IMG/VR virus record: IMGVR_UViG_2778261570_000027
Source: a virus
Taxonomy: Duplodnaviria > Heunggongvirae > Uroviricota > Caudoviricetes
Reading direction: 5' to 3' (one strand)
DNA length: 24,489 nt
The notes beneath the pieces were generated by a model, which saw only the letters and a list, made by a program, of their open reading frames with translations, ran no database searches and had not been told where the DNA came from. Below, one piece after another: positions 1-20,896 of this stretch (positions are counted from its first letter, which is position 1; each line of letters opens with the position of its first letter). Position numbers and translations under genes: made by a program.

Positions 1-1053
1 TTACGGGGTAATGCCAACCGCTGCCGCCACTTTGTCGCCACTTGGCAGCGTTGCCAGAGGATTGAAACGGAGCGCCGTTTCTAGATGATCCGGTGCCAGA
101 TGTGCGTAACGCATAGTCATTTTTATATCGTGGTGTCCGAGAATTTTTTGTAAGGCCAGAATGTTTCCACCCGACATCATGAAGTGCGCCGCAAACGTAT
201 GGCGCAGAACGTGTGTGAGTTGACCGCGAGGGAGCACGATAGACGTTTTTTCCATCACGGATAAAAATTGAAAATAGCAGTCTGTGAAGAAATTGAACCC
301 ATCAAGCGCCATGATCTCTTCGTAAAGCTCTTTACTGATAGGGATGCTTCTGTTTTTCTTCCCCTTCGTTCTGACAAAGGTAATTCGGTATTTGGTCACC
401 TGTGAGCGGGTAAGATTTACGGCTTCACGCCAGCGTGCGCCTGTGCTTAAGCATATCTTAACTACCAGTGCCAGAATTGGGTCCTGACGTTTGCAATCAG
501 CCAGCAATTCAACAATCTGCTCATGGGTAAGCCATGCCATCTCTTTTTCTGCGATGGTGAATTTTCGCATGTTCTCCAGTGGGTTCGGATACGACCATTC
601 GCCCAGACGGGATAGTTCGCTAAAAACACTACTTAGATAGCTTTGCTCCAGGTTAATGGTGACCGGGCTTGCTCCTTTCTTCCATTTCTCGCTGAAGTAG
701 ATCTCGCCTGTCAGGCGTTTATCTCGATAGTGGGCAAACATTTTAGAGGTGAGATCGGTTGCAAGAGGATTGCCCAGAGCGTCAACCATCAACAGCAATT
801 TGTCATAGACATGCTGCCCAGCTGTCAGAGATTTACCATGTAGTTTGAACCATAGCTCAACCACGTCTTTCAGTGTTCGACGATCCACTGATTCACCCAG
901 CCAGGGCTTTGCTTCGGTTTCTTCCATCGTGTGGCGCTCAAAAGCCAGTGCTTCGCCTTTGGTGGCGAATTGTTTACGCACACGACGCCCACTTCGTCCG
1001 GCGGGGTAACATTCGCAAAGCCATTTCCCTGTGGTTAGTTTTCGTACTGCCAT
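1..1053 (-). CDS. int: P2/186-family tyrosine integrase (complete, 350 aa; stop codon is the first 3 nt of the window)
   Basis: Full ORF with tyrosine-recombinase catalytic signature in order (GARWREA ... HVLRHTFA ... MRYAHL = R, H-x-x-R, Y). Sits at the prophage end next to the repressor module, as in P2/186. Confidence 0.9.
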   Translation of the reverse strand: MAVRKLTTGKWLCECYPAGRSGRRVRKQFATKGEALAFERHTMEETEAKPWLGESVDRRTLKDVVELWFKLHGKSLTAGQHVYDKLLLMVDALGNPLATDLTSKMFAHYRDKRLTGEIYFSEKWKKGASPVTINLEQSYLSSVFSELSRLGEWSYPNPLENMRKFTIAEKEMAWLTHEQIVELLADCKRQDPILALVVKICLSTGARWREAVNLTRSQVTKYRITFVRTKGKKNRSIPISKELYEEIMALDGFNFFTDCYFQFLSVMEKTSIVLPRGQLTHVLRHTFAAHFMMSGGNILALQKILGHHDIKMTMRYAHLAPDHLETALRFNPLATLPSGDKVAAAVGITP

Positions 1054-1135
1054 AAAAAGCCCTCATATCAGAGGACTAAATTTAACTGTATATGTAACCA
1101 GTAATCAATGTGTGATTACTATGAAACATACATTG

Positions 1136-2812
1136 CTAAGCAACATGTAGTTCATCGTTGGCGGAAGTGGCTGCTTTGCGCTCCTGCTCAATAGCTAGAG
1201 ACTCTCTATATTCTTTCGCCTCTGCAAACATTGTCCAGTGGGCGTTGATGTTCATGTCTTCAATAACTGATTTGATTTCTTTTAAATTTACGTTAAAAAA
1301 CTCTTTTCGTGAGTTAATTTTATTGACCTGCTTTTCGTTGAAAACTTTATGCAGATGGTTTTCTAATGATGGTGCATCATCACTATAAATCATCGCATGA
1401 ACATCGAACGAAAAAGGAACACTAGCATCTCCGAGTTCACGAACACGATCAAGTGGTTCAAGGCGGCGTGTCATTCCAATTTTATATACATCTTCGCCAA
1501 ATGAACCAATATTACTAATGATATAGACGTGGCCTGATCTGGTTTGTTGAGCCATAGAAATAGCTCGTTGATTTTTAGCTTCAGCTTCTTCATATTTTAA
1601 CTGTAGTTCAGCTATTTTTTGCTCTAAAGCTAAGCGTTGTTCTTCATTTGCAAGCATAAGTTCTTTCGTTGCTTTATTTATAGCTTGCTGAATAGCTTTT
1701 TCTTCTTTTTCAGCTTCTTTTATCGCTTTTTCATATTCTCTACGAGCTCTTTCCTCTTCACGAAGCTGTTCTTTAATCCTTCTTTGCTCTTCTTTTTCTT
1801 CGAGCATAATTTCATTAACTGCTACACCCCATTTTAGCTCGTTGAGTCTTGCCTGAAGATAGATGTCACTTATTTTTGCGGACCTAAAGGCAGAGCCATT
1901 GTAATTTACTAGTTGAAATGCATCTTTTATTTCTTGGGAAAGTTTTCCAAAATTGTTGTGTTTGACTTTTGATAAAATACTGTCAACTCTTCCATTGAAG
2001 GCATCCAAAACAAAGTTTATGGCAGTATTACGCCTGTTTTGCTCAACATAATCACACGAAGCAGCTTTATTAGTTTTTATTAATGATTTGGTTAACTCTC
2101 TGGCTTTTTGTAATTCCTTGCCTGCATCTGTAAATTCATAATTTTCTGCCAGCTCATCAAGTACACTACGGTTAGGGATGATCCATTCATCACCATAACC
2201 TTCAATTTTATTTTTCATTGATTTTGCAACTGCTTCATATTTTTCTGCAAACTCTTTAGCTTCATATGCTGAACCAGCAATCTCCTTTGCTCTTTCTTCT
2301 GCATCAGAAATAATTTTTACTGCATTGTCATTAGCATTTGAGATTAGCTCATTTGCTTTATTATTAGCATTATCAAGACGTTCTTTGGCTTTCAGGCGTG
2401 CATCGCGAGCGTCTTTGGTGATTGCTATAGCTTCGCTATTAGCGTTGCTTATTGTCATCTGAGCTTGATAATTTGCTTCGTTTACTGTTTTAGCCGCCTT
2501 AATTTGGGCTTCATCTATTTTTTGCTTGGCTATTGAGTCCGCATTTTTTATCTTATTCTCTGCATCCATTACTGCGCTGTGCAATTCTTCGTATTGCCAC
2601 AATGGTGCTGCTCGCCCTTCAAGCTCTGATAATTCTCGTACGGTCTGTGCTAGTTTTTCTTGATTTTCAATCAGTTGGTTAGAAAGGGCTATGTTGTTAG
2701 CTGTCAGGTTATCTATAGCCGCTTTGTGTTTTTTACTTTGTTTAAATAATATTACAGCTAGAACAGGGGCGAGAAATGCTAATAAGAGTATAACGATGGC
2801 AAATGAATTCAT
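1136..2812 (-). CDS. Cargo protein (558 aa): N-terminal TM helix, long coiled-coil, DUF4041-like middle region, C-terminal T5orf172/Mug113 (GIY-YIG-like) domain; candidate anti-phage defence protein
   Basis: Long ORF with an SD-like AAGGA upstream of the ATG (minus strand) and only 20 nt after the cI stop. Markedly AT-rich versus flanking int and cI. Hydrophobic aa 4-23 (SFAIVILLLAFLAPVLAVILF), then an Ala/Lys/Glu-rich heptad-like region. The C-terminal ~95 aa (GHVYIISNIGSFGEDVYKIGMTRRLEPLDRVRELGDASVPFSFDVHAMIYS..., plus-strand nt ~1250-1534) resemble the T5orf172 fold as I remember it. Confidence 0.7.
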   Translation of the reverse strand: MNSFAIVILLLAFLAPVLAVILFKQSKKHKAAIDNLTANNIALSNQLIENQEKLAQTVRELSELEGRAAPLWQYEELHSAVMDAENKIKNADSIAKQKIDEAQIKAAKTVNEANYQAQMTISNANSEAIAITKDARDARLKAKERLDNANNKANELISNANDNAVKIISDAEERAKEIAGSAYEAKEFAEKYEAVAKSMKNKIEGYGDEWIIPNRSVLDELAENYEFTDAGKELQKARELTKSLIKTNKAASCDYVEQNRRNTAINFVLDAFNGRVDSILSKVKHNNFGKLSQEIKDAFQLVNYNGSAFRSAKISDIYLQARLNELKWGVAVNEIMLEEKEEQRRIKEQLREEERARREYEKAIKEAEKEEKAIQQAINKATKELMLANEEQRLALEQKIAELQLKYEEAEAKNQRAISMAQQTRSGHVYIISNIGSFGEDVYKIGMTRRLEPLDRVRELGDASVPFSFDVHAMIYSDDAPSLENHLHKVFNEKQVNKINSRKEFFNVNLKEIKSVIEDMNINAHWTMFAEAKEYRESLAIEQERKAATSANDELHVA

Positions 2813-2832
2813 TTTAAAATCCTTTTACTATA

Positions 2833-3429
2833 TTAATTCGAGACTATTGTACTTCTTATACAAGCAACCACTTCAATATCAGAAAATGCACATTCAAAGC
2901 TATTCTCTGCTGTTGTAATTTTAATCATTCCTTTAGGAAGCCTTGTGATTTTTCGAATGGAATAGGTTCCGTCGATATTGATTAACCAGTTTCCATCAAG
3001 TACTTCAGAAAATTTTTGATCACAAATGTATGTGACGAGTCCATCCTGAACAACAATTGGTGATGAAAGGTTTGCAGGAAGAAATGATGAATCGAAGACA
3101 TATGAACCGTCTTCAATCATTTTGCCTGCGGCAAGGCGAAACTTAACAAGCTCTTCTGTAGCTGCTGTCAGCGAGCTTTGCTTAAGGCCTTGTCCGGTAG
3201 TTAACCATTTGAGGGAGGTTCCTGTTTCAAGAGCACATTGGATTATCCAGTCAGCAGGAAATGTATCCCGCAAATACCTGTTCGCTAGTGTGCTTTTTGA
3301 TACTTCCAAGTGATCAGCTAAAGCCTGTCGTGTCGTAAAGCCATAGGCTTCGACTAATCGCTCAATCGCAGCCTTACCACCTTTATTGGGATTTATTTTG
3401 ATCTCACTTGGGTACTTTGATGTTGACAT
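2833..3429 (-). CDS. cI: 186 CI-like immunity repressor (198 aa)
   Basis: Divergent from apl/cII across a short switch region. Size matches 186 CI (~192 aa) rather than P2 C (99 aa). N-terminal DNA-binding-like region (GFTTRQALADHLEVSKSTLANR). Confidence 0.75.
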   Translation of the reverse strand: MSTSKYPSEIKINPNKGGKAAIERLVEAYGFTTRQALADHLEVSKSTLANRYLRDTFPADWIIQCALETGTSLKWLTTGQGLKQSSLTAATEELVKFRLAAGKMIEDGSYVFDSSFLPANLSSPIVVQDGLVTYICDQKFSEVLDGNWLINIDGTYSIRKITRLPKGMIKITTAENSFECAFSDIEVVACIRSTIVSN

Positions 3430-5352: not shown

Positions 5353-5579
5353 TGGCTGATGCAATGGATCTCGTACAGCAGCGCGTTGAAGAAGAACGCC
5401 AGCGCCATATCCGTGCAGCCCGTGCCAAATCACCGGGCGTGTCACGCGTACTTTGCATTGAATGTGAAGCGCCAATTCCGCCAGCACGACGCCGCGCCAT
5501 TCCGGGAGTGCAGCTTTGCATTACCTGTCAGGAAATCGCAGAACTGAAAGGCAAACATTACAACGGAGGTGCTGTATGA
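5352..5579 (+). CDS. TraR/DksA-family C4 zinc-finger protein (75 aa)
   Basis: CxxC ... CxxC motif (CIECEAPIPPARRRAIPGVQLCITC) in a ~75-aa protein, typical of phage TraR/DksA-like proteins. Translationally coupled to neighbours. Confidence 0.7.
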   Translation: MADAMDLVQQRVEEERQRHIRAARAKSPGVSRVLCIECEAPIPPARRRAIPGVQLCITCQEIAELKGKHYNGGAV

Positions 5580-6433
5580 GCACCATCCTGAAATGGGCGG
5601 GAAATAAAACCGCCATTATGCCAGAACTGAAAAAATACCTTCCTGCTGGCCCGCGACTGGTTGAACCTTTCGCGGGTTCCTGTGCTGTGATGATGGAAAC
5701 GGATTATCCCAGCTATCTGGTTGCGGATATTAATCCTGATTTAATCAACCTCTATAAAAAGGTTGCCGCTGATTGTGAATCGTTTATATCTCGCGCCAGA
5801 GTTTTATTTGAGATCGCAAACAGGGAGGTGGCTTATTACAACATAAGGCAGGAGTTTAACTGCTCAACTGAAATTACTGATTTCATGAAAGCGGTATATT
5901 TCCTGTATCTCAATCGTCACGGTTACCGTGGTTTATGTCGCTATAACAAGAGCGGGCATTTCAACATTCCCTACGGTAATTATAAAAATCCGTATTTCCC
6001 TGAAAAAGAACTTCGCACATTTGCAGAAAAAGCCCAGCGAGCAACGTTTATCTGCGCCAGCTTTGATGAAACGCTGGCGATGTTGAAGGCGGGAGATGTG
6101 GTGTATTGCGATCCGCCATATGACGGTACGTTTTCCGGCTATCACACTGATGGTTTCACTGAAGATGACCAGTATCACCTGGCATCCGTTCTTGAACATC
6201 GGTCATCAGAAGGACATCCGGTCATTGTTTCTAACAGTGACACATCCCTGATCCGTTCGCTGTATCGCAATTTTACTCACCACTATATCAAGGTAAAACG
6301 CAGCATCGGTGTGGCAGCTGGCGAGGGTAAATCAGCAACAGAAATCATTGCTGTTTCCGGGCCGCGCTGCTGGATGGGATTTGATTATTCGCGTGGCGTG
6401 GATAGTTCTGCCGTGTACGGAGTACGTGCATGA
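5576..6433 (+). CDS. dam: Dam-family DNA N6-adenine methyltransferase (285 aa), orphan (no cognate nuclease seen)
   Basis: Strong resemblance to E. coli Dam as I recall it: [42 protein letters not shown] and the DPPY catalytic motif ([10 protein letters not shown]). ATGA overlaps with both neighbours. Confidence 0.88.
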
Positions 6434-8844
6434 GTCATGCCGATATGAACAACTGCTGCGGCTTTAACGAGGCTGCCGCAGCATTCTCATGGAACAGCCC
6501 GAAAAAGGCCATTAACCCTTATCTGGACCCGGCGGAAGTTGCGCCGGTTTCTACGCTTTCAAACCTGATCACTCTGTACGCTGCCGATAACGAGCAGGAA
6601 CAGTTGCGCCGCGAGGCACTGAGTGATCAGGTCTGGGAGCGTTATTTCTTTAATGAATCACGTGATCCTGTCCAGCGCGAAATGGAGCAGGATAAGCTCA
6701 TTAGCCGGGCAAAGCTGGCGCATGAGCAGCAGCGTTTTAATTCAGACATGGTCATTCTGGCGGACGTCAACGCCCAGCCTTCCCATATCAGCAAGCCGCT
6801 GATGCAACGTATTGAATACTTCAGCAGCCTGGGCAGGCCAAAGGCTTATTCCCGCTATTTACGTGAGACGATTAAGCCATGTCTGGAACGACTGGAGCAT
6901 GTACGCGACAGTCAGCTATCTGCATCTTTTCGCTTTATGGCAAGCCATGAAGGGCTGGACGGCCTGCTGATCCTGCCTGAAATGAGTCAGGATCAGGTGA
7001 AACGCCTGTCCACCCTGGTAGCTGCGCATATGAGTATGTGCCTTGATGCAGCTTGTGGTGATTTGTATGCCACCGATGACGTTAAGCCAGAAGAAATCCG
7101 CAAGACATGGGAAAAGGTGGCAGCGGAAACCCTGCGTCTGGATGTCATCCCACCTGCGTTTGAGCAACTCCGTCGGAAAAGAAACCGCCGTAAACCCGTG
7201 CCGTATGAACTCATTCCGGGTTCGCTGGCGCGTATGTTGTGCGCCGACTGGTGGTATCGGAAATTATGGAAGATGCGTTGCGAATGGCGGGAAGAGCAGT
7301 TGCGCGCTGTTTGCCTGGTCAGCAAAAAAGCATCTCCTTATGTCAGCTATGAAGCCGTGATGCATAAACGTGAGCAGCGCCGTAAGTCGCTGGAGTTTTT
7401 CCGTTCTCATGAACTGGTGAACGAAGACGGCGACACGCTGGACATGGAGGATGTGGTAAACGCCAGCAGCAGCAACCCTGCGCATCGCCGCAATGAGATG
7501 ATGGCCTGTGTTAAAGGTCTGGAGCTTATCGCGGAAATGCGCGGTGACTGCGCCGTTTTCTACACTATCACCTGTCCGTCGCGTTTCCATTCCACGCTAA
7601 ATAACGGCAGACCAAACCCGACCTGGACAAACGCGACGGTAAGACAAAGCAGCGATTATCTGGTCGGCATGTTTGCTGCATTTCGTAAGGCGATGCACAA
7701 AGCCGGGTTGCGCTGGTATGGCGTGCGGGTGGCTGAGCCGCATCATGATGGCACAGTTCACTGGCACCTGTTGTGTTTCATGCGCAAAAAAGACCGCCGT
7801 GCCATCACTGCATTACTGCGTAAGTTTGCCATCCGTGAAGACCGCGAGGAGCTGGGCAATAACACTGGGCCGCGCTTTAAGTCTGAGTTGATTAACCCGC
7901 GCAAAGGAACGCCGACAAGCTACATCGCGAAATATATCAGTAAGAACATTGACGGTCGTGGTCTGGCTGGCGAGATCAGCAAGGAAACGGGTAAATCTCT
8001 GCGTGATAACGCTGAATACGTGAATGCCTGGGCGTCTCTGCATCGTGTTCAGCAATTCCGCTTCTTTGGTATTCCGGGGCGTCAGGCTTACCGTGAACTT
8101 CGCTTGCTGGCTGGTCAGGCGGCAAGGCAACAGGGTGACAAAAAAGCAGGTGCGCCGGTACTGGATAACCCGCGTCTTGATGCCATTCTGGCTGCTGCTG
8201 ATGCTGGTTGTTTTGCCACCTACATCATGAAGCAGGGCGGCGTACTGGTTCCCCGTAAATATCACCTCATCAGAACCGCTTATGAAATCAACGAAGAGCC
8301 GACCGCCTATGGCGATCACGGCATTCGTATTTATGGCATCTGGTCACCCATTGCAGAGGGCAAGATCTGCACTCATGCAGTGAAGTGGAAAATGGTTCGT
8401 AAAGCCGTTGACGTTCAGGAGGCGGCAGCCGACCAGGGCGCTTGCGCCCCTTGGACTCGTGGCAATAACTGTCCCCTTGCTGAAAATTTGTACCAACAAG
8501 GGAAAGACAAATCAGCTGATGGGGATACCAGAACGGATATCACCCGCATGGATGACAAGGAATTGCACGATTACCTGCACAGTATGAACAAAAAAGAGCG
8601 TCGGGAACTGGCTGCAAGGTTACGCCTGGTGAAACCGAAACGGCGTAGAGACTACAAACAGCGAATTACAGATCATCAGCGACAGCAGCTCGTCTATGAA
8701 CTGAAGTCCAGAGGATTTGATGGCAGCGAGAAAGAGGTCGATTTACTCCTTCGCGGCGGCAGCATTCCGTCAGGAGCAGGCCTGCGTATTTTCTATCGGA
8801 ACCAGCGTTTGCAGGAAGATGATAAGTGGCGGAACCTGTATTAA
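6430..8844 (+). CDS. A: P2/186 gpA-type rolling-circle replication initiation endonuclease (804 aa)
   Basis: Very large last gene of the early operon, in the position and size range of P2 gene A (761 aa). ATG overlaps the dam stop (ATGA). Contains a region reminiscent of the RCR metal-binding motif (HWHLLCF). Confidence 0.8.
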
Positions 8845-8997: not shown

Positions 8998-9186
8998 ATG
9001 CAGGACTATTTTTTGGAGTCTTTGAAGCTCCAGCGCATTGATTTTTTTCTTAAGCTTGTAGCGGCTAGTGAGTGTAGTGATGAAGAGAAGGGGCTGGCCC
9101 TGCAGTGGGTTTCTGAACTGACAGATGAACTCATGGCAAAAATCAGAACCCACGAATACAACCGCTCAATGGATGTCATCAGCTGA
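8998..9186 (+). CDS. Small SOS-operon protein (62 aa); possibly the N-terminal part of a Tum-like antirepressor
   Basis: ATG 8998 with a strong SD (GGAGGAAAG) directly upstream and downstream of the LexA box. The longer ORF-track start (8896) would run through the LexA box and lacks an SD. Confidence 0.45.
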   Translation: MQDYFLESLKLQRIDFFLKLVAASECSDEEKGLALQWVSELTDELMAKIRTHEYNRSMDVIS

Positions 9187-9196
9187 GGTGACTTTT

Positions 9197-9430
9197 ATGC
9201 GCATTGAAATAATGATCGATAAAGAGCAGAAGATTAGCCAGTCTACCCTGGACGCCCTTGAATCCGAGCTTTACCGCAATCTGCGCCCCCTGTATCCCAA
9301 AACGGTAATTCGCATTCGCAAAGGTAGCTCTAACGGTGTGGAACTGACCGGACTGCAACTGGACGAAGAAAGGAAGCAAGTGATGAAAATTATGCAGAAG
9401 GTGTGGGAAGACGACAGCTGGCTGCATTAA
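9197..9430 (+). CDS. DinI-family protein (77 aa)
   Basis: MRIEIMIDKEQ... aligns by eye with E. coli DinI (MRIEVTIAKT...), including a Trp-containing acidic motif (WEDDSW) near the C-terminus. ATG 9197 lies 10 nt after the previous stop and is under the LexA box. Confidence 0.7.
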   Translation: MRIEIMIDKEQKISQSTLDALESELYRNLRPLYPKTVIRIRKGSSNGVELTGLQLDEERKQVMKIMQKVWEDDSWLH

Positions 9431-9717: not shown

Positions 9718-11295
9718 ATGGATATCAACTATGTTGTTTCAAAAATGGGGTTCGTAGATGATCTTATTAATGCAGGTTCATTTGATTCTGCCTATAAAAA
9801 TGTAAAGGATATTCTTAACGGTACCGATGAGATAAATACAATCAAAGAAAATAGAATAATTATATTATCTAATTTGGCCGGAAATCTTATTGATATCGGA
9901 AGTTTTAGTAATGTAAAAAATATAGCGGAGGAAGGCTTAAATATCTTTATAAACAATAAAAATGAATTTCTGACTATAATGAAAGAATCCTTATATTACT
10001 ATAACTTGGCAAATGGAATGAGCGCAGTTCTTGATTTTAATCCTAATGACAATGCAGATATTGATAGTTTCATTAAGCTGAATGATGTAAAAAATAATTA
10101 CTGGAAAGCGTTTAAACTTTCACAAGAAGATGGATGGGTGCCCCCTGATTTAATAGTTAATCTAGCTAATGTATTAAAAAAACAATATCGTATATCTGAA
10201 TCAATGGATTATTATGAACAAGCAATATCTATTGATAACTCAATTCCTCAGGCGTGGGTAAACAGATCTGAGGCATTAGAATTGCTTAATGAATTATCTA
10301 CAACATATACATATAAAATGATTAAAGAAGTTATTCGAGGTTATGAGTGTGCAATAAAGTCAGGGAAATGTTTTCCTTCATGGAAGGTTGCTCTTCAAAG
10401 AAAAATAAAGTACAACGAAAGTATATTGAGTGAATCATGTGTATATGGCATAGAGGATATAAGTACAGATGAAAGGCTCACGCAGGAGGAGTATGATACT
10501 TTATCAAACTACCAGAGGTTTTGTATAGATAATAATCTAATGTTGTCTGATCATTCGCTATATTGCAATTGTTATGCGTCATCTAAAGATAATATAACTA
10601 TTGCTACCACCGAGGAAGGTGTGTTTGGTGATTTTATAGTGCCAATGGAAATGGTGTTAAATAGACTTAAAGCTGAGTATTCCTTAGCACGAAAAATGTT
10701 TTTTGAATATAAGGTTGATAGTGAGTTTTTTGATGAGGATTCGGAGGTATGTTATTCTGAATTGTATAATGGAGAAATATTGTATGAAAATGTTGAGAAG
10801 TTAAGGGTTGCATTTAGAGCTTGCTTTGGTATCTTGGATAAAATAGCAGTTGCTCTGTGTCAATTATTTGATTTAAAACCAGATAGAGGACATATATACT
10901 TTCATAACTTCTGGCGGATTAGTGATGAAAAAAGAAAGCTTAAAATAAACAAAATAAATAATAAAGGATTGCTGGGTTTGTTTAGTATTGCTATGGATTT
11001 GAATGATAAAAATGGTGAGCTTGCTTTTTTTAAAGAATGGAGGAATGATTTAGAACATAAACTGTTAGTTATTCACGAGAAAGACATGTTAGTTGATTTA
11101 TATAATTCTTATGGGTTTTTTGATGAGGTGAGGTTTATTGAGAAAGAAAAGTTTGAGAAACAGCTCTTACAACTCATGAAAATTGTGAGATCAGCCGTTA
11201 TTCTTTTTGTGTTTACCATACGTATAGAGGGGAAAAAAAGTATTCCTAAAGATATGTTGACCATTAAAAATACCATCGAGAGAAAAGTATTGTAG
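9718..11295 (+). CDS. Cargo protein (525 aa) with TPR-like N-terminal region and C-terminal Rx4H HEPN-type motif; candidate abortive-infection or defence RNase
   Basis: Uninterrupted 1.58-kb ORF with SD AAAGAGGA (9706-9713) and a perfect TATAAT at 9677-9682. Strikingly AT-rich versus the flanking phage genes. R-N-D-L-E-H at aa 442-447 (nt 11041-11058) fits the HEPN Rx4-6H motif. Sits between gene A/SOS operon and cos, the P2 tin/old position. Confidence 0.7.
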   Translation: MDINYVVSKMGFVDDLINAGSFDSAYKNVKDILNGTDEINTIKENRIIILSNLAGNLIDIGSFSNVKNIAEEGLNIFINNKNEFLTIMKESLYYYNLANGMSAVLDFNPNDNADIDSFIKLNDVKNNYWKAFKLSQEDGWVPPDLIVNLANVLKKQYRISESMDYYEQAISIDNSIPQAWVNRSEALELLNELSTTYTYKMIKEVIRGYECAIKSGKCFPSWKVALQRKIKYNESILSESCVYGIEDISTDERLTQEEYDTLSNYQRFCIDNNLMLSDHSLYCNCYASSKDNITIATTEEGVFGDFIVPMEMVLNRLKAEYSLARKMFFEYKVDSEFFDEDSEVCYSELYNGEILYENVEKLRVAFRACFGILDKIAVALCQLFDLKPDRGHIYFHNFWRISDEKRKLKINKINNKGLLGLFSIAMDLNDKNGELAFFKEWRNDLEHKLLVIHEKDMLVDLYNSYGFFDEVRFIEKEKFEKQLLQLMKIVRSAVILFVFTIRIEGKKSIPKDMLTIKNTIERKVL

Positions 11296-12154: not shown

Positions 12155-13183
12155 CTAATACATATAAGGTTCGAAGCGAATTATTTCTTCGCCCAGCCAG
12201 TCGTTAAGCTCCTGCAGTCGCTTCTGTAACGGCATCAGTTCGTTGCGGACAAAGACGCGGCTGGCTTTTTCAACATCACCAAATCCCCCAACATTACTCG
12301 GCATGATTCCCATCATTTGTGGCGGTACACGGTGCGCAGCCATCATGTCATCGCGGCTGACATTTTTGATATTCAGAAACTCATCCTTCGCCGCGACTTC
12401 TGACAACGGGATGATCTGAAGCCCGTCCTTTTTGCCGTTAGGCGAGTACATGAACAGATTGCGGAAGTTACCTGGTCCTTTGGCACTTTTCATCGCATTG
12501 CGAAGGTTGTTCACGTCCTCCTGGTTCTGCGCGGCATCGGTCATGTACATGATGAAGCCTGCATGACTGCCGTTAATGTAATACTTACGGCGGAACAGCG
12601 TGGCGGACTCGTTGAGCAGGGCTGACGGAATGGCAGAAAGATAACCTGGCAGGCCGTAGATCTCCTGGTTGATGTCCGGTTCCATCAGATGAAAAATGCT
12701 GCCTTTCGTGAACTGATACGGCTGGGTTGTCATACCGTATTGCACAAACCAGTAGGTATCCAGGTCTAACCCGCGTCGGGTGTATTTTGCCAGAGCAGGC
12801 TCAAGGGCGATAACTTCACCGAAACGGTTCGTGCGTTTCTCCAGGTAGGCGTTACCAAAAACCAGATAGTCCTGTACAAAACGCGAAAAAGCCTGCTGGC
12901 TGAGCAGCGGGTGAGGGATGTAGGTGCTGGTCAGAATGTTGCACTTCACTGCAATCGGTGAGCTGTGATGCACGGCGGCGCGGAAAGTTCGCGCCAGTCC
13001 GTCGAAACTCACAGGCGGCTCATACCAACGATCCATCTGTACGCATTCCACATAGTCCAGCAGTTCGCGGCGGTCCAGAACAGGAACGGGATCACCGAAG
13101 CTGAATGCTTCGGCTGAAGTCTGGCCTTTATGCTGGATCTGTTTCGTCGACGCAGCGCGGTTCTTCTTACTCTTTCCCATCAA
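12155..13183 (-). CDS. Q: Portal protein, P2 gpQ homologue (342 aa)
   Basis: Size and position (last gene of the leftward P-Q operon, next to cos) match P2 Q (344 aa). Start overlaps the P stop. Confidence 0.85.
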   Translation of the reverse strand: MMGKSKKNRAASTKQIQHKGQTSAEAFSFGDPVPVLDRRELLDYVECVQMDRWYEPPVSFDGLARTFRAAVHHSSPIAVKCNILTSTYIPHPLLSQQAFSRFVQDYLVFGNAYLEKRTNRFGEVIALEPALAKYTRRGLDLDTYWFVQYGMTTQPYQFTKGSIFHLMEPDINQEIYGLPGYLSAIPSALLNESATLFRRKYYINGSHAGFIMYMTDAAQNQEDVNNLRNAMKSAKGPGNFRNLFMYSPNGKKDGLQIIPLSEVAAKDEFLNIKNVSRDDMMAAHRVPPQMMGIMPSNVGGFGDVEKASRVFVRNELMPLQKRLQELNDWLGEEIIRFEPYMY

Positions 13184-20063: not shown

Positions 20064-20457
20064 AGCAGTGCCTTATGTCCGCAATAACCCGGACAAACTG
20101 CATCTGTTTGTGGATAACGGTTCGCTGGTTGCCACGGGGGCCAGCTCCATGTCATGGGAGTACCGCTACACCCTGAACGTGGTGATAGAGGATTTCAGCG
20201 GCGACCAGAATCTGCTGATGGCCCCGGTTTTGCTGTGGCTGCGTGATAACCAGCCCGATGCCATCAATAACCCGGCGTTACGGGAAAAACTATTCACCTT
20301 TGAGGTGGATATTTTGCGCAACGATGTCTGTGATATCAGCCTTAACCTGCAACTGACGGAGCGTGTGCTGGTCAGTACTGACGGCAGTGTGTCGAGTGTT
20401 GAAGCTGTAGCGGAACCCGATGAACCTGAAGAAATGTGGACGGTGAAACGTGGCTGA
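20026..20457 (+). CDS. R: Tail completion protein, P2 gpR homologue (143 aa; GTG start preferred over upstream TTG)
   Basis: AGGAG SD (20014-20018) 7 nt before GTG 20026. Position after the lysis genes as in P2. Confidence 0.7.
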   Translation: MNKPQSLRHALNKAVPYVRNNPDKLHLFVDNGSLVATGASSMSWEYRYTLNVVIEDFSGDQNLLMAPVLLWLRDNQPDAINNPALREKLFTFEVDILRNDVCDISLNLQLTERVLVSTDGSVSSVEAVAEPDEPEEMWTVKRG

Positions 20458-20896
20458 ACTGCAGAAGGTGGACGACTGGCTGAGTGCTTTGCTGGCGAAT
20501 CTGGAACCAGCCGCAAGAAGCCGCATGATGCGGCAGCTGGCGCAGGAACTGCGCCGGACACAGCAGCAGAATATCAGAATGCAGCGCAATCCAGATGGCA
20601 GCAGTTATGAACCGCGCAGGGTAACAGCACGCAGCAAAAAGGGGCGCATCAAACGTCAGATGTTTACAAAGCTGCGCACCACAAAATACCTGAAAACTGC
20701 CGCCAGCGCCGACTCTGCCAGCGTGCAGTTTGAAGGCAAGGTACAGCGCATTGCCCGTGTTCATCACTACGGCTTACGTGATCGCGTCAGCCGCAAAGGA
20801 CCGGAGGTCCGTTACGCAGAGCGTCGTCTTCTGGGTGTAAATGATGATGTTGAGGCAATGACCCGCGACATGATTCTGAAATGGCTGGCGGGGTGA
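20450..20896 (+). CDS. S: Tail completion protein, P2 gpS homologue (148 aa; start codon uncertain)
   Basis: Size matches P2 S (150 aa); last gene of the O operon. The GTG start overlaps the R stop. Confidence 0.7.
   Translation: MAELQKVDDWLSALLANLEPAARSRMMRQLAQELRRTQQQNIRMQRNPDGSSYEPRRVTARSKKGRIKRQMFTKLRTTKYLKTAASADSASVQFEGKVQRIARVHHYGLRDRVSRKGPEVRYAERRLLGVNDDVEAMTRDMILKWLAG

Follow-up and report, generated by a model that had tools for sequence, protein, structure and literature searches.

The cargo gene between the cI repressor and integrase (int) genes of the P2/186-like prophage IMGVR_UViG_2778261570_000027 very probably encodes a single-protein anti-phage system of the SNIPE (PD-λ-1) family, acting on incoming DNA as its prototype does. 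The gene occupies positions 1136..2812 (minus strand) of the 24,489-nucleotide (nt) stretch analyzed here (hereafter, the window) and, from an ATG start, encodes a protein of 558 amino acids (aa) identical to RefSeq WP_021574262.1. Its place in the SNIPE/PD-λ-1 family could not be made more secure by sequence analysis, and the system is already known: it has been named, its mechanism has been published, standard defense-finder models find it, and RefSeq annotates it. PD-λ-1 came from a functional screen as the 500-aa ECOR26 protein RCP76574.1 (Vassallo et al. 2022, PMC9519451) and was renamed SNIPE and characterized by Saxton et al., Nature 2026 (PMC13190303). According to the latter study, in which PhoA-LacZα fusions were used, SNIPE is a single-pass inner-membrane protein with a periplasmic N-terminus and a cytoplasmic remainder; its DUF4041 domain binds both DNA and the tape measure proteins (TMPs) of siphoviruses, and its GIY-YIG nuclease, in which E414 is catalytic, breaks phage DNA into fragments while it is injected.

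Family assignment and protein architecture

Profile searches placed the 558-aa protein in the SNIPE family over almost its whole length. The PADLOC PD-Lambda-1 model PDLC03976 matched residues 106-550 with profile positions 36-481 of 491 (E=2.4e-120), the second PADLOC PD-Lambda-1 model, PDLC03977, matched residues to ~551 (E=7.9e-117), and PHROG 1847 matched with E=6.6e-133. The RefSeq product of this exact gene is named 'DUF4041 domain-containing protein' and, in newer records, 'SNIPE associated domain-containing protein', and the orthologs from Klebsiella and Citrobacter with 85% identity carry the precomputed Pfam label 'PF13250:SNIPE'. An initial annotation made from the letters of the window had described the gene as prophage-borne anti-phage cargo, possibly of an uncharacterized system. 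The PD-Lambda-1 match and the accessory occurrence of the gene in Escherichia coli bear out the first part of this description, and the same match together with the SNIPE label in RefSeq disposes of the second.

Competing assignments were far weaker than PD-Lambda-1: PADLOC PDC-S57 matched the nuclease domain only (E=4.5e-20), and Lamassu LmuB matched the coiled coil only (E=0.0012), below its curated cut-off. NCBIfam offered no specific family for the protein, just sub-threshold coiled-coil matches (DivIVA/Wag31, ATP synthase b/E, and SMC), of which the SMC match comprised coiled coil only (E=0.0026; 15.5 bits versus a cut-off of 729). An SMC-like 'chromosome segregation ATPase' was likewise rejected, with no SMC_N or AAA match in Pfam and no ATPase domain. 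This label stands in the GenBank phage records ON470620.1 and OM835953.1 (phages 813R9 and KP12), and JGI names the orthologs 'vacuolar-type H+-ATPase subunit H'; because no ATPase domain is present, both ATPase labels appear to be coiled-coil artifacts. These labels and matches, together with the known occurrence of T5orf172/GIY-YIG domains in homing endonucleases, are what could be cited for a gene without a role in defense, i.e., either a structural coiled-coil protein or a selfish homing-type nuclease of the GIY-YIG kind by which the cI-cargo cassette is spread. We regard this explanation as scarcely credible: the SMC and LmuB matches are far below the curated cut-offs, homing endonucleases are not characterized by a transmembrane (TM) anchor or a DUF4041 module, the searches revealed no DNA-binding domain of the homing-endonuclease type, and the match to a defense family validated by experiment is overwhelming and spans the whole length.

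The architecture of the protein was examined by Pfam searches and by structural prediction. The TM helix (2744..2800, minus strand; residues 5-23, AIVILLLAFLAPVLAVILF) is the sole hydrophobic segment of the protein, with a maximum KD19 of 3.16. The N-terminal stub of four residues is uncharged, the helix is followed by KQSKKHK, and four Lys/Arg residues lie within the next 15 aa; by the positive-inside rule, the N-terminus is thus predicted to be outside and the C-terminus inside. The N-terminal helical stalk (2201..2743, minus strand; residues 24-204) is rich in Ala, Lys, Glu, and Asn and gave weak DivIVA/Wag31 and ATP-synthase-b matches in Pfam and NCBIfam. It is followed by the DUF4041 module (Pfam PF13250, 'SNIPE'; 1847..2164, minus strand; residues 217-322), in which Pfam matched residues 267-322 (E=3.1e-12; 46.6 bits versus a cut-off of 27), by a Glu/Lys/Arg-rich linker helix (1541..1846, minus strand; residues 323-424), and by a GIY-YIG-type nuclease domain of the T5orf172/MUG113 type (1253..1534, minus strand; residues 427-520). 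The last was matched by T5orf172 at residues 427-520 (E=3.2e-17) and by MUG113 at residues 443-520 (E=3.7e-20), and its catalytic Glu, E484, is encoded at 1361-1363.

The AlphaFold2 (AF2) model used here was based on an alignment of 100 diverse homologs and reached a predicted local distance difference test (pLDDT) score of 85.6; it replaced an earlier run on 26 sequences of at least 82% identity, in which pLDDT was 52 and only the secondary structure was usable. In the model, a single helix extends from the TM segment through the stalk (residues 2-204), a compact helical DUF4041 module (residues 217-306; pLDDT about 86-95) is followed by a second long helix (residues 316-422, composed of helices 316-387 and 390-422), and a β/α nuclease domain (residues 427-519) precedes a C-terminal helix. 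Foldseek against the PDB returned the GIY-YIG nuclease Slx1 as its best matches (probability 0.97 and 0.92); a sequence search of solved structures returned nothing at E <= 0.01. The N-terminal membrane anchor, the DUF4041-like region, and the T5orf172/Mug113 C-terminus named in the initial annotation were all recovered by these analyses. Its coiled-coil of ~380 aa holds as a long helical stalk and fails as a continuous one, the DUF4041 module separating helix 2-204 from helix 316-422 in the AF2 model.

To assess conservation across the family, the protein was searched exhaustively against 1.84 billion cluster representatives, with matches to 3,368 clusters at E <= 1e-3, of which 1,409 reached E <= 1e-30, and diverse relatives with 31-57% identity, including the 100-homolog set, were aligned. 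Homologs occur in temperate phages of many phyla. All invariant columns are kept in the 558-aa protein: Y430, G436, G439, G446, T448, R449, R450, E459, P466, F467, F469, E484, and N497. Among the eight columns in and around DUF4041 that are Lys or Arg in at least 60% of relatives, seven are Lys or Arg here (R238, K242, K246, K282, K284, R322, and K327), which matches, at the level of the aligned sequence, the conserved basic patch associated with DNA binding in SNIPE. A strongly hydrophobic segment within the first 90 aa was found in 105 of 135 diverse relatives. The family is characterized by an N-out TM helix within the first ~70 aa, and 59% of SNIPE homologs have been reported to possess one TM segment (PMC13190303). 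The region preceding DUF4041 has a family median length of 225 aa (interquartile range, 170-268) and comprises 266 aa here and 197 aa in the prototype, so that the longer stalk falls in the normal range of the family. The N-terminal region is the most variable part of the family. Supplementary Table 3 of PMC13190303 lists ATP-synthase-b-like and DivIVA-like N-termini among the TM-containing SNIPE homologs, in agreement with the weak matches of the stalk to these families.

Relation to the prototype and proposed mode of action

As a reference for the prototype, we used a gene of E. coli 118UI that lies in a lambdoid prophage and encodes a 500-aa DUF4041 protein. This protein carries all nine residues named in the SNIPE paper (E223, N250, L253, W257, E264, K305, I308, T319, and E414) and is identical at 499 of 500 positions to the 'PD-lambda-1' coding sequence of phage ΦR26.1 from ECOR26, which makes it a valid reference. 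BLASTP aligned residues 265-555 of the 558-aa protein with residues 196-487 of the reference (50% identity over 293 aa; E=4e-77). Identity was 74% in the nuclease domain, 47% in the linker helix, and 20-28% in the N-terminal stalk. The domains are offset by exactly +70 residues from those of the prototype (DUF4041, 267-322 versus 197-252; T5orf172, 427-520 versus 357-448), and the catalytic E414 of SNIPE aligns with E484. Among the named residues, W257 corresponds to K327 and E223 to S292; substitutions of W257 and E223 increase anti-Bas14 defense in the prototype, W257R being the one named (PMC13190303).

The immediate locus indicates how the gene may be expressed. The cI gene (2833..3429, minus strand) encodes a 186-type repressor of 198 aa with the Pfam domains Phage_CI_repr and Phage_CI_C, and int (1..1053, minus strand) encodes a P2/186-type tyrosine integrase of 350 aa with Int_N and Phage_integrase. 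These two genes flank the cargo gene, which has no partner gene and thus forms a single-gene system. The cI stop codon (2835-2833) and the cargo ATG (2812-2810) are separated by exactly 20 nt (2813..2832, minus strand), within which an AAGGA Shine-Dalgarno (SD) sequence at 2824-2820 lies 7 nt upstream of the ATG. A simple consensus scan found neither a σ70-like promoter nor a terminator-like site between the two genes, and this short uninterrupted gap suggests that the cargo is most likely transcribed together with cI and made in the lysogen. The GC content of the cargo gene is 37.0%, compared with 48.9% for int and 50.0% for the whole window. The coordinates, strand, AT-rich composition, and spacing of this 1.68-kb gene, as well as its own SD sequence, were thus as initially annotated.

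By analogy with the prototype, and with support from the validated homologs of Streptococcus thermophilus (PMC12322248), the 558-aa protein is most likely an inner-membrane protein of the lysogen that cuts incoming phage DNA at the injection site. The protein would be made in the lysogen, most likely from the cI transcript, and anchored in the membrane with ~4 residues in the periplasm and all the rest in the cytoplasm, so that the tether would hold the C-terminal GIY-YIG nuclease off the chromosome. When a phage (a siphovirus in the case of the prototype) injects its genome, the DUF4041 module would engage the conduit of TMP and DNA at the membrane, and the nuclease would then cut the entering DNA. 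This study establishes directly how the protein is built, its homology, which catalytic and basic residues it conserves, that its gene is mobile, and where in the genome the gene lies. We infer nuclease activity, cleavage at injection, siphovirus specificity, and TMP binding from the homology; action at the inner membrane on incoming phage DNA, as proposed in the initial annotation, has been shown for prototype SNIPE (PMC13190303). If the 558-aa protein acts as the prototype does, the cell would survive through direct defense rather than abortive infection, and the lysogen would be protected without being killed and without effect on its resident myovirus-type prophage.

An abortive-infection toxin would behave differently: infection would free or activate the nuclease, the host chromosome would be degraded, and the cell would die. 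The ΔTM form of the prototype is indeed toxic and cuts the host chromosome (PMC13190303), hence the nuclease is not intrinsically phage-specific. Infected cells bearing the intact prototype, however, survive and grow at high multiplicity of infection, the injected DNA is fragmented, and induced prophage is unaffected (PMC13190303). The TM anchor and architecture of the 558-aa protein are those of the prototype, and we consider the toxin explanation very improbable.

Several observations weigh against a simple transfer of the SNIPE mechanism to this protein. In the BLASTP comparison with the reference, the first 264 residues showed no significant similarity, and the identity in DUF4041 was only about 25%. 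Two homologs from S. thermophilus that are 98.5% identical differ completely in activity (PMC12322248), so homology is no guarantee of activity. The evidence for transcription of the cargo with cI comprises spacing and the consensus scan only. Finally, we found no experimental test of the 558-aa variant in the literature. WP_021574262 was absent from the accessible portions of the supplements of PMC13190303, a study that analyzed 474 homologs, and a mention of PD-Lambda-1 in the Goldfinder paper (PMC12409351) concerns Vibrio and is irrelevant to this gene.

The divergence of the N-terminal half bears on specificity in particular. The N-terminus of the 558-aa protein has no detectable similarity to the part of the prototype modeled as the ManYZ contact, and ManYZ association is a property of the prototype that does not define the family (PMC13190303). 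Because the N-terminal 264 aa are unrelated and DUF4041 is divergent, neither the target range nor the ManYZ dependence of the prototype is transferable to the 558-aa variant. A SNIPE-family protein of materially different specificity might use an inner-membrane entry route or recognize a class of tail protein other than those of λ and ManYZ, possibly in phages other than λ-like siphoviruses. The unrelated residues 1-264, the extension of ~70 aa before DUF4041, the low identity of DUF4041 itself, and the presence of K327 in place of W257 would all fit this explanation, as would the proposal that the hypervariable N-terminus of SNIPE serves as a specificity adapter (PMC13190303). We nevertheless consider it unlikely: SNIPE homologs with the N-terminal class of this protein (a TM helix plus a coiled coil resembling ATP synthase b or DivIVA) have already been catalogued, and a different specificity would refine the SNIPE assignment, leaving the class of mechanism the same.

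The cI-int slot and other cargo of the prophage

The window is a Peduoviridae prophage, which adjoins rcdA/ybjJ in E. coli; over int-cII, it shares 99.9% identity with Escherichia phage vB_EcoM-813R9. The cargo gene was present in 164 of 5,426 complete E. coli genomes (3%), in each case as a single chromosomal copy. About 1,270 E. coli genomes had related int or cII flanks, and just 164 of them the cargo segment; the int-cargo-cI-cII query was covered to at least 80% in 164 genomes, and full-length copies of the 198-aa cI and of the cargo were each found in 163. The cargo is thus strictly linked to one cI type in E. coli. An identical cI(198)-cargo(558)-int module, with the same spacers of 20 nt (cI-cargo) and 82 nt (cargo-int), was found at other chromosomal sites in Klebsiella and Citrobacter prophages, and the 558-aa lineage is the commonest form of SNIPE in prophages of Klebsiella, Citrobacter, Salmonella, and Enterobacter.

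Comparison of the int-cI junction across related 186-like prophages, which the initial annotation had proposed, showed that the insert varies from a 63-aa open reading frame (ORF) to an OLD-like protein; the refuting outcome named there, the same gene at this junction in every related prophage, was not observed. The smallest related junction, that of BL21(DE3) (L004 1440-1631), holds the 63-aa ORF; MS6193 encodes a 329-aa protein with no PADLOC hit and only sub-threshold membrane-protein and coiled-coil matches in Pfam; PM4-5 encodes a KAP NTPase matching the PADLOC candidate PDC-S20 (E=2.6e-171) together with a 60-aa ORF; CE12-1 encodes a 660-aa OLD-like AAA_15 and TOPRIM protein; and Klebsiella phage 4LV2017 encodes a 349-aa protein with no PADLOC or Pfam match. 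Occupants of the slot lie at L003 1851-2900, L005 1341-2330, L006 1334-2665, and L007 5733-7715. The cI-int junction of these prophages is therefore a variable, defense-enriched hotspot, and the 329-aa and 349-aa proteins are possible new defense candidates.

The gene had been described as wedged between neighboring cI and int genes. It does lie between them, but the slot is nearly always filled in related prophages, and the type of cI varies with the cargo. Because cI changes with the cargo and the module is identical across genera, the exchangeable unit is the immunity type plus the defense gene rather than an insertion between two fixed genes. The low-GC tract does not end with the cargo but takes in the C-terminal half of cI (2833..3179; 37.5% GC), the N-terminal helix-turn-helix (HTH) half of cI (3180..3429) having 44% GC. 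In some genomes, homology to other cI alleles is interrupted within the gene and is limited to query positions ~389-597. These data suggest that the C-terminal domain of cI and the cargo were acquired together. Alternative cI alleles of 311-313 aa, compared with ~190-198 aa, were also observed (L005 2341-3279; L007 7735-8670; L003 2903-3844); each gave two Phage_CI_repr HTH matches, and they look like tandem-HTH repressors tied to particular cargo. It is possible, and we advance it tentatively, that the 558-aa lineage represents a functionally distinct specificity class, whose unrelated, longer stalk and divergent DUF4041 face would recognize an entry route or tail protein other than those of λ and ManYZ, and that travels as a fixed cassette of cI immunity type and defense gene in the cI-int hotspot.

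The fixed right-hand edge of the slot is marked by a conserved pre-int element (1054..1135, minus strand), recognized by a terminator-like match and by sequence. It contains a hairpin (1077..1058, minus strand; AGTCCTC-tgatat-GAGGGCT followed by a T-run) that ends at the int ATG and whose 3' arm contains the SD sequence of int. About 75 nt upstream of int are kept whatever the cargo, and changes in the stem preserve pairing. Slot variants that lack SNIPE have a near-consensus TTGACA-16-TAAAAT just upstream. These features suggest that int is under separate control, by attenuation, SD sequestration, or a promoter of its own.

The prophage carries further cargo. An ORF of 525 aa (9718..11295, plus strand), with replication gene A (6430..8844) on one side and portal gene Q (12155..13183) on the other, lies at a classic P2 defense hotspot where phage 813R9 has a different gene despite its 99.9% identity over int-cII. 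The ORF contains an LA2681-like HEPN domain (PF18733, E=1.8e-38, residues 309-504), matched no PADLOC v2 system except for a faint tetratricopeptide-repeat (TPR) hit, and is a candidate HEPN-RNase defense cargo outside PADLOC v2. An orphan Dam-type D12 N6-adenine methyltransferase (5516..6433, plus strand; PADLOC oMTase, E=1.6e-110) and a DinI-like protein (9125..9430, plus strand) are also encoded. The prophage has nothing in its Z/fun-type hotspot, located between gpS (20450..20896) and gpV (20965..), a site that is occupied in phage 813R9.

Comparison with known systems

The SNIPE mechanism was published in 2026, standard tools detect the system under its name, and RefSeq labels the exact protein; the discovery value of the present gene is accordingly small. 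As a widespread natural variant of SNIPE with another N-terminal adapter and another DUF4041 surface, it is a useful comparator for how specificity is encoded. The enterobacterial 186-like cI-int slot is a cargo hotspot, and its unannotated occupants are reasonable candidates for new defense genes.

The 558-aa protein shares with prototype SNIPE its single-gene organization, the order of TM helix (N-out), helical stalk, DUF4041, linker helix, GIY-YIG/T5orf172 domain, and C-terminal helix, the catalytic Glu with all family-invariant residues, the TM layout with a positive C-terminal flank, and carriage by temperate phages. It differs in length (558 aa versus 500 aa), the region before DUF4041 being ~70 aa longer, and in location: the prototype belongs to a lambdoid phage, where it lies in the ren/nin region, and the 558-aa gene to a P2/186-like myovirus prophage, where it fills the cI-int slot. 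The S. thermophilus PD-Lambda-1 homologs, which are distant, protect against siphoviruses at no fitness cost (PMC12322248). They belong to the same PADLOC/DefenseFinder family, a likeness of family assignment and not of direct sequence comparison, and unlike the present gene they are chromosomal in a Gram-positive host and lie outside a cI-int slot.

With respect to position, the slot resembles the defense hotspots of P2-like phages (old/tin, Z/fun, and the Vibrio cI-int junction), in which variable cargo occupies a fixed site in the prophage. A cI-int hotspot has already been described in P2-related K139-like Vibrio phages (Rousset et al. 2022, PMC9122126); that hotspot belongs to phages of Vibrionaceae, whereas in the enterobacterial 186-like prophages the type of cI changes with the cargo. 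Zorya and Kiwa are alike by analogy only, both being membrane-associated and acting at genome injection (PMC13190303, discussion); they are multi-gene systems of unrelated proteins, to which PADLOC gave no match here.

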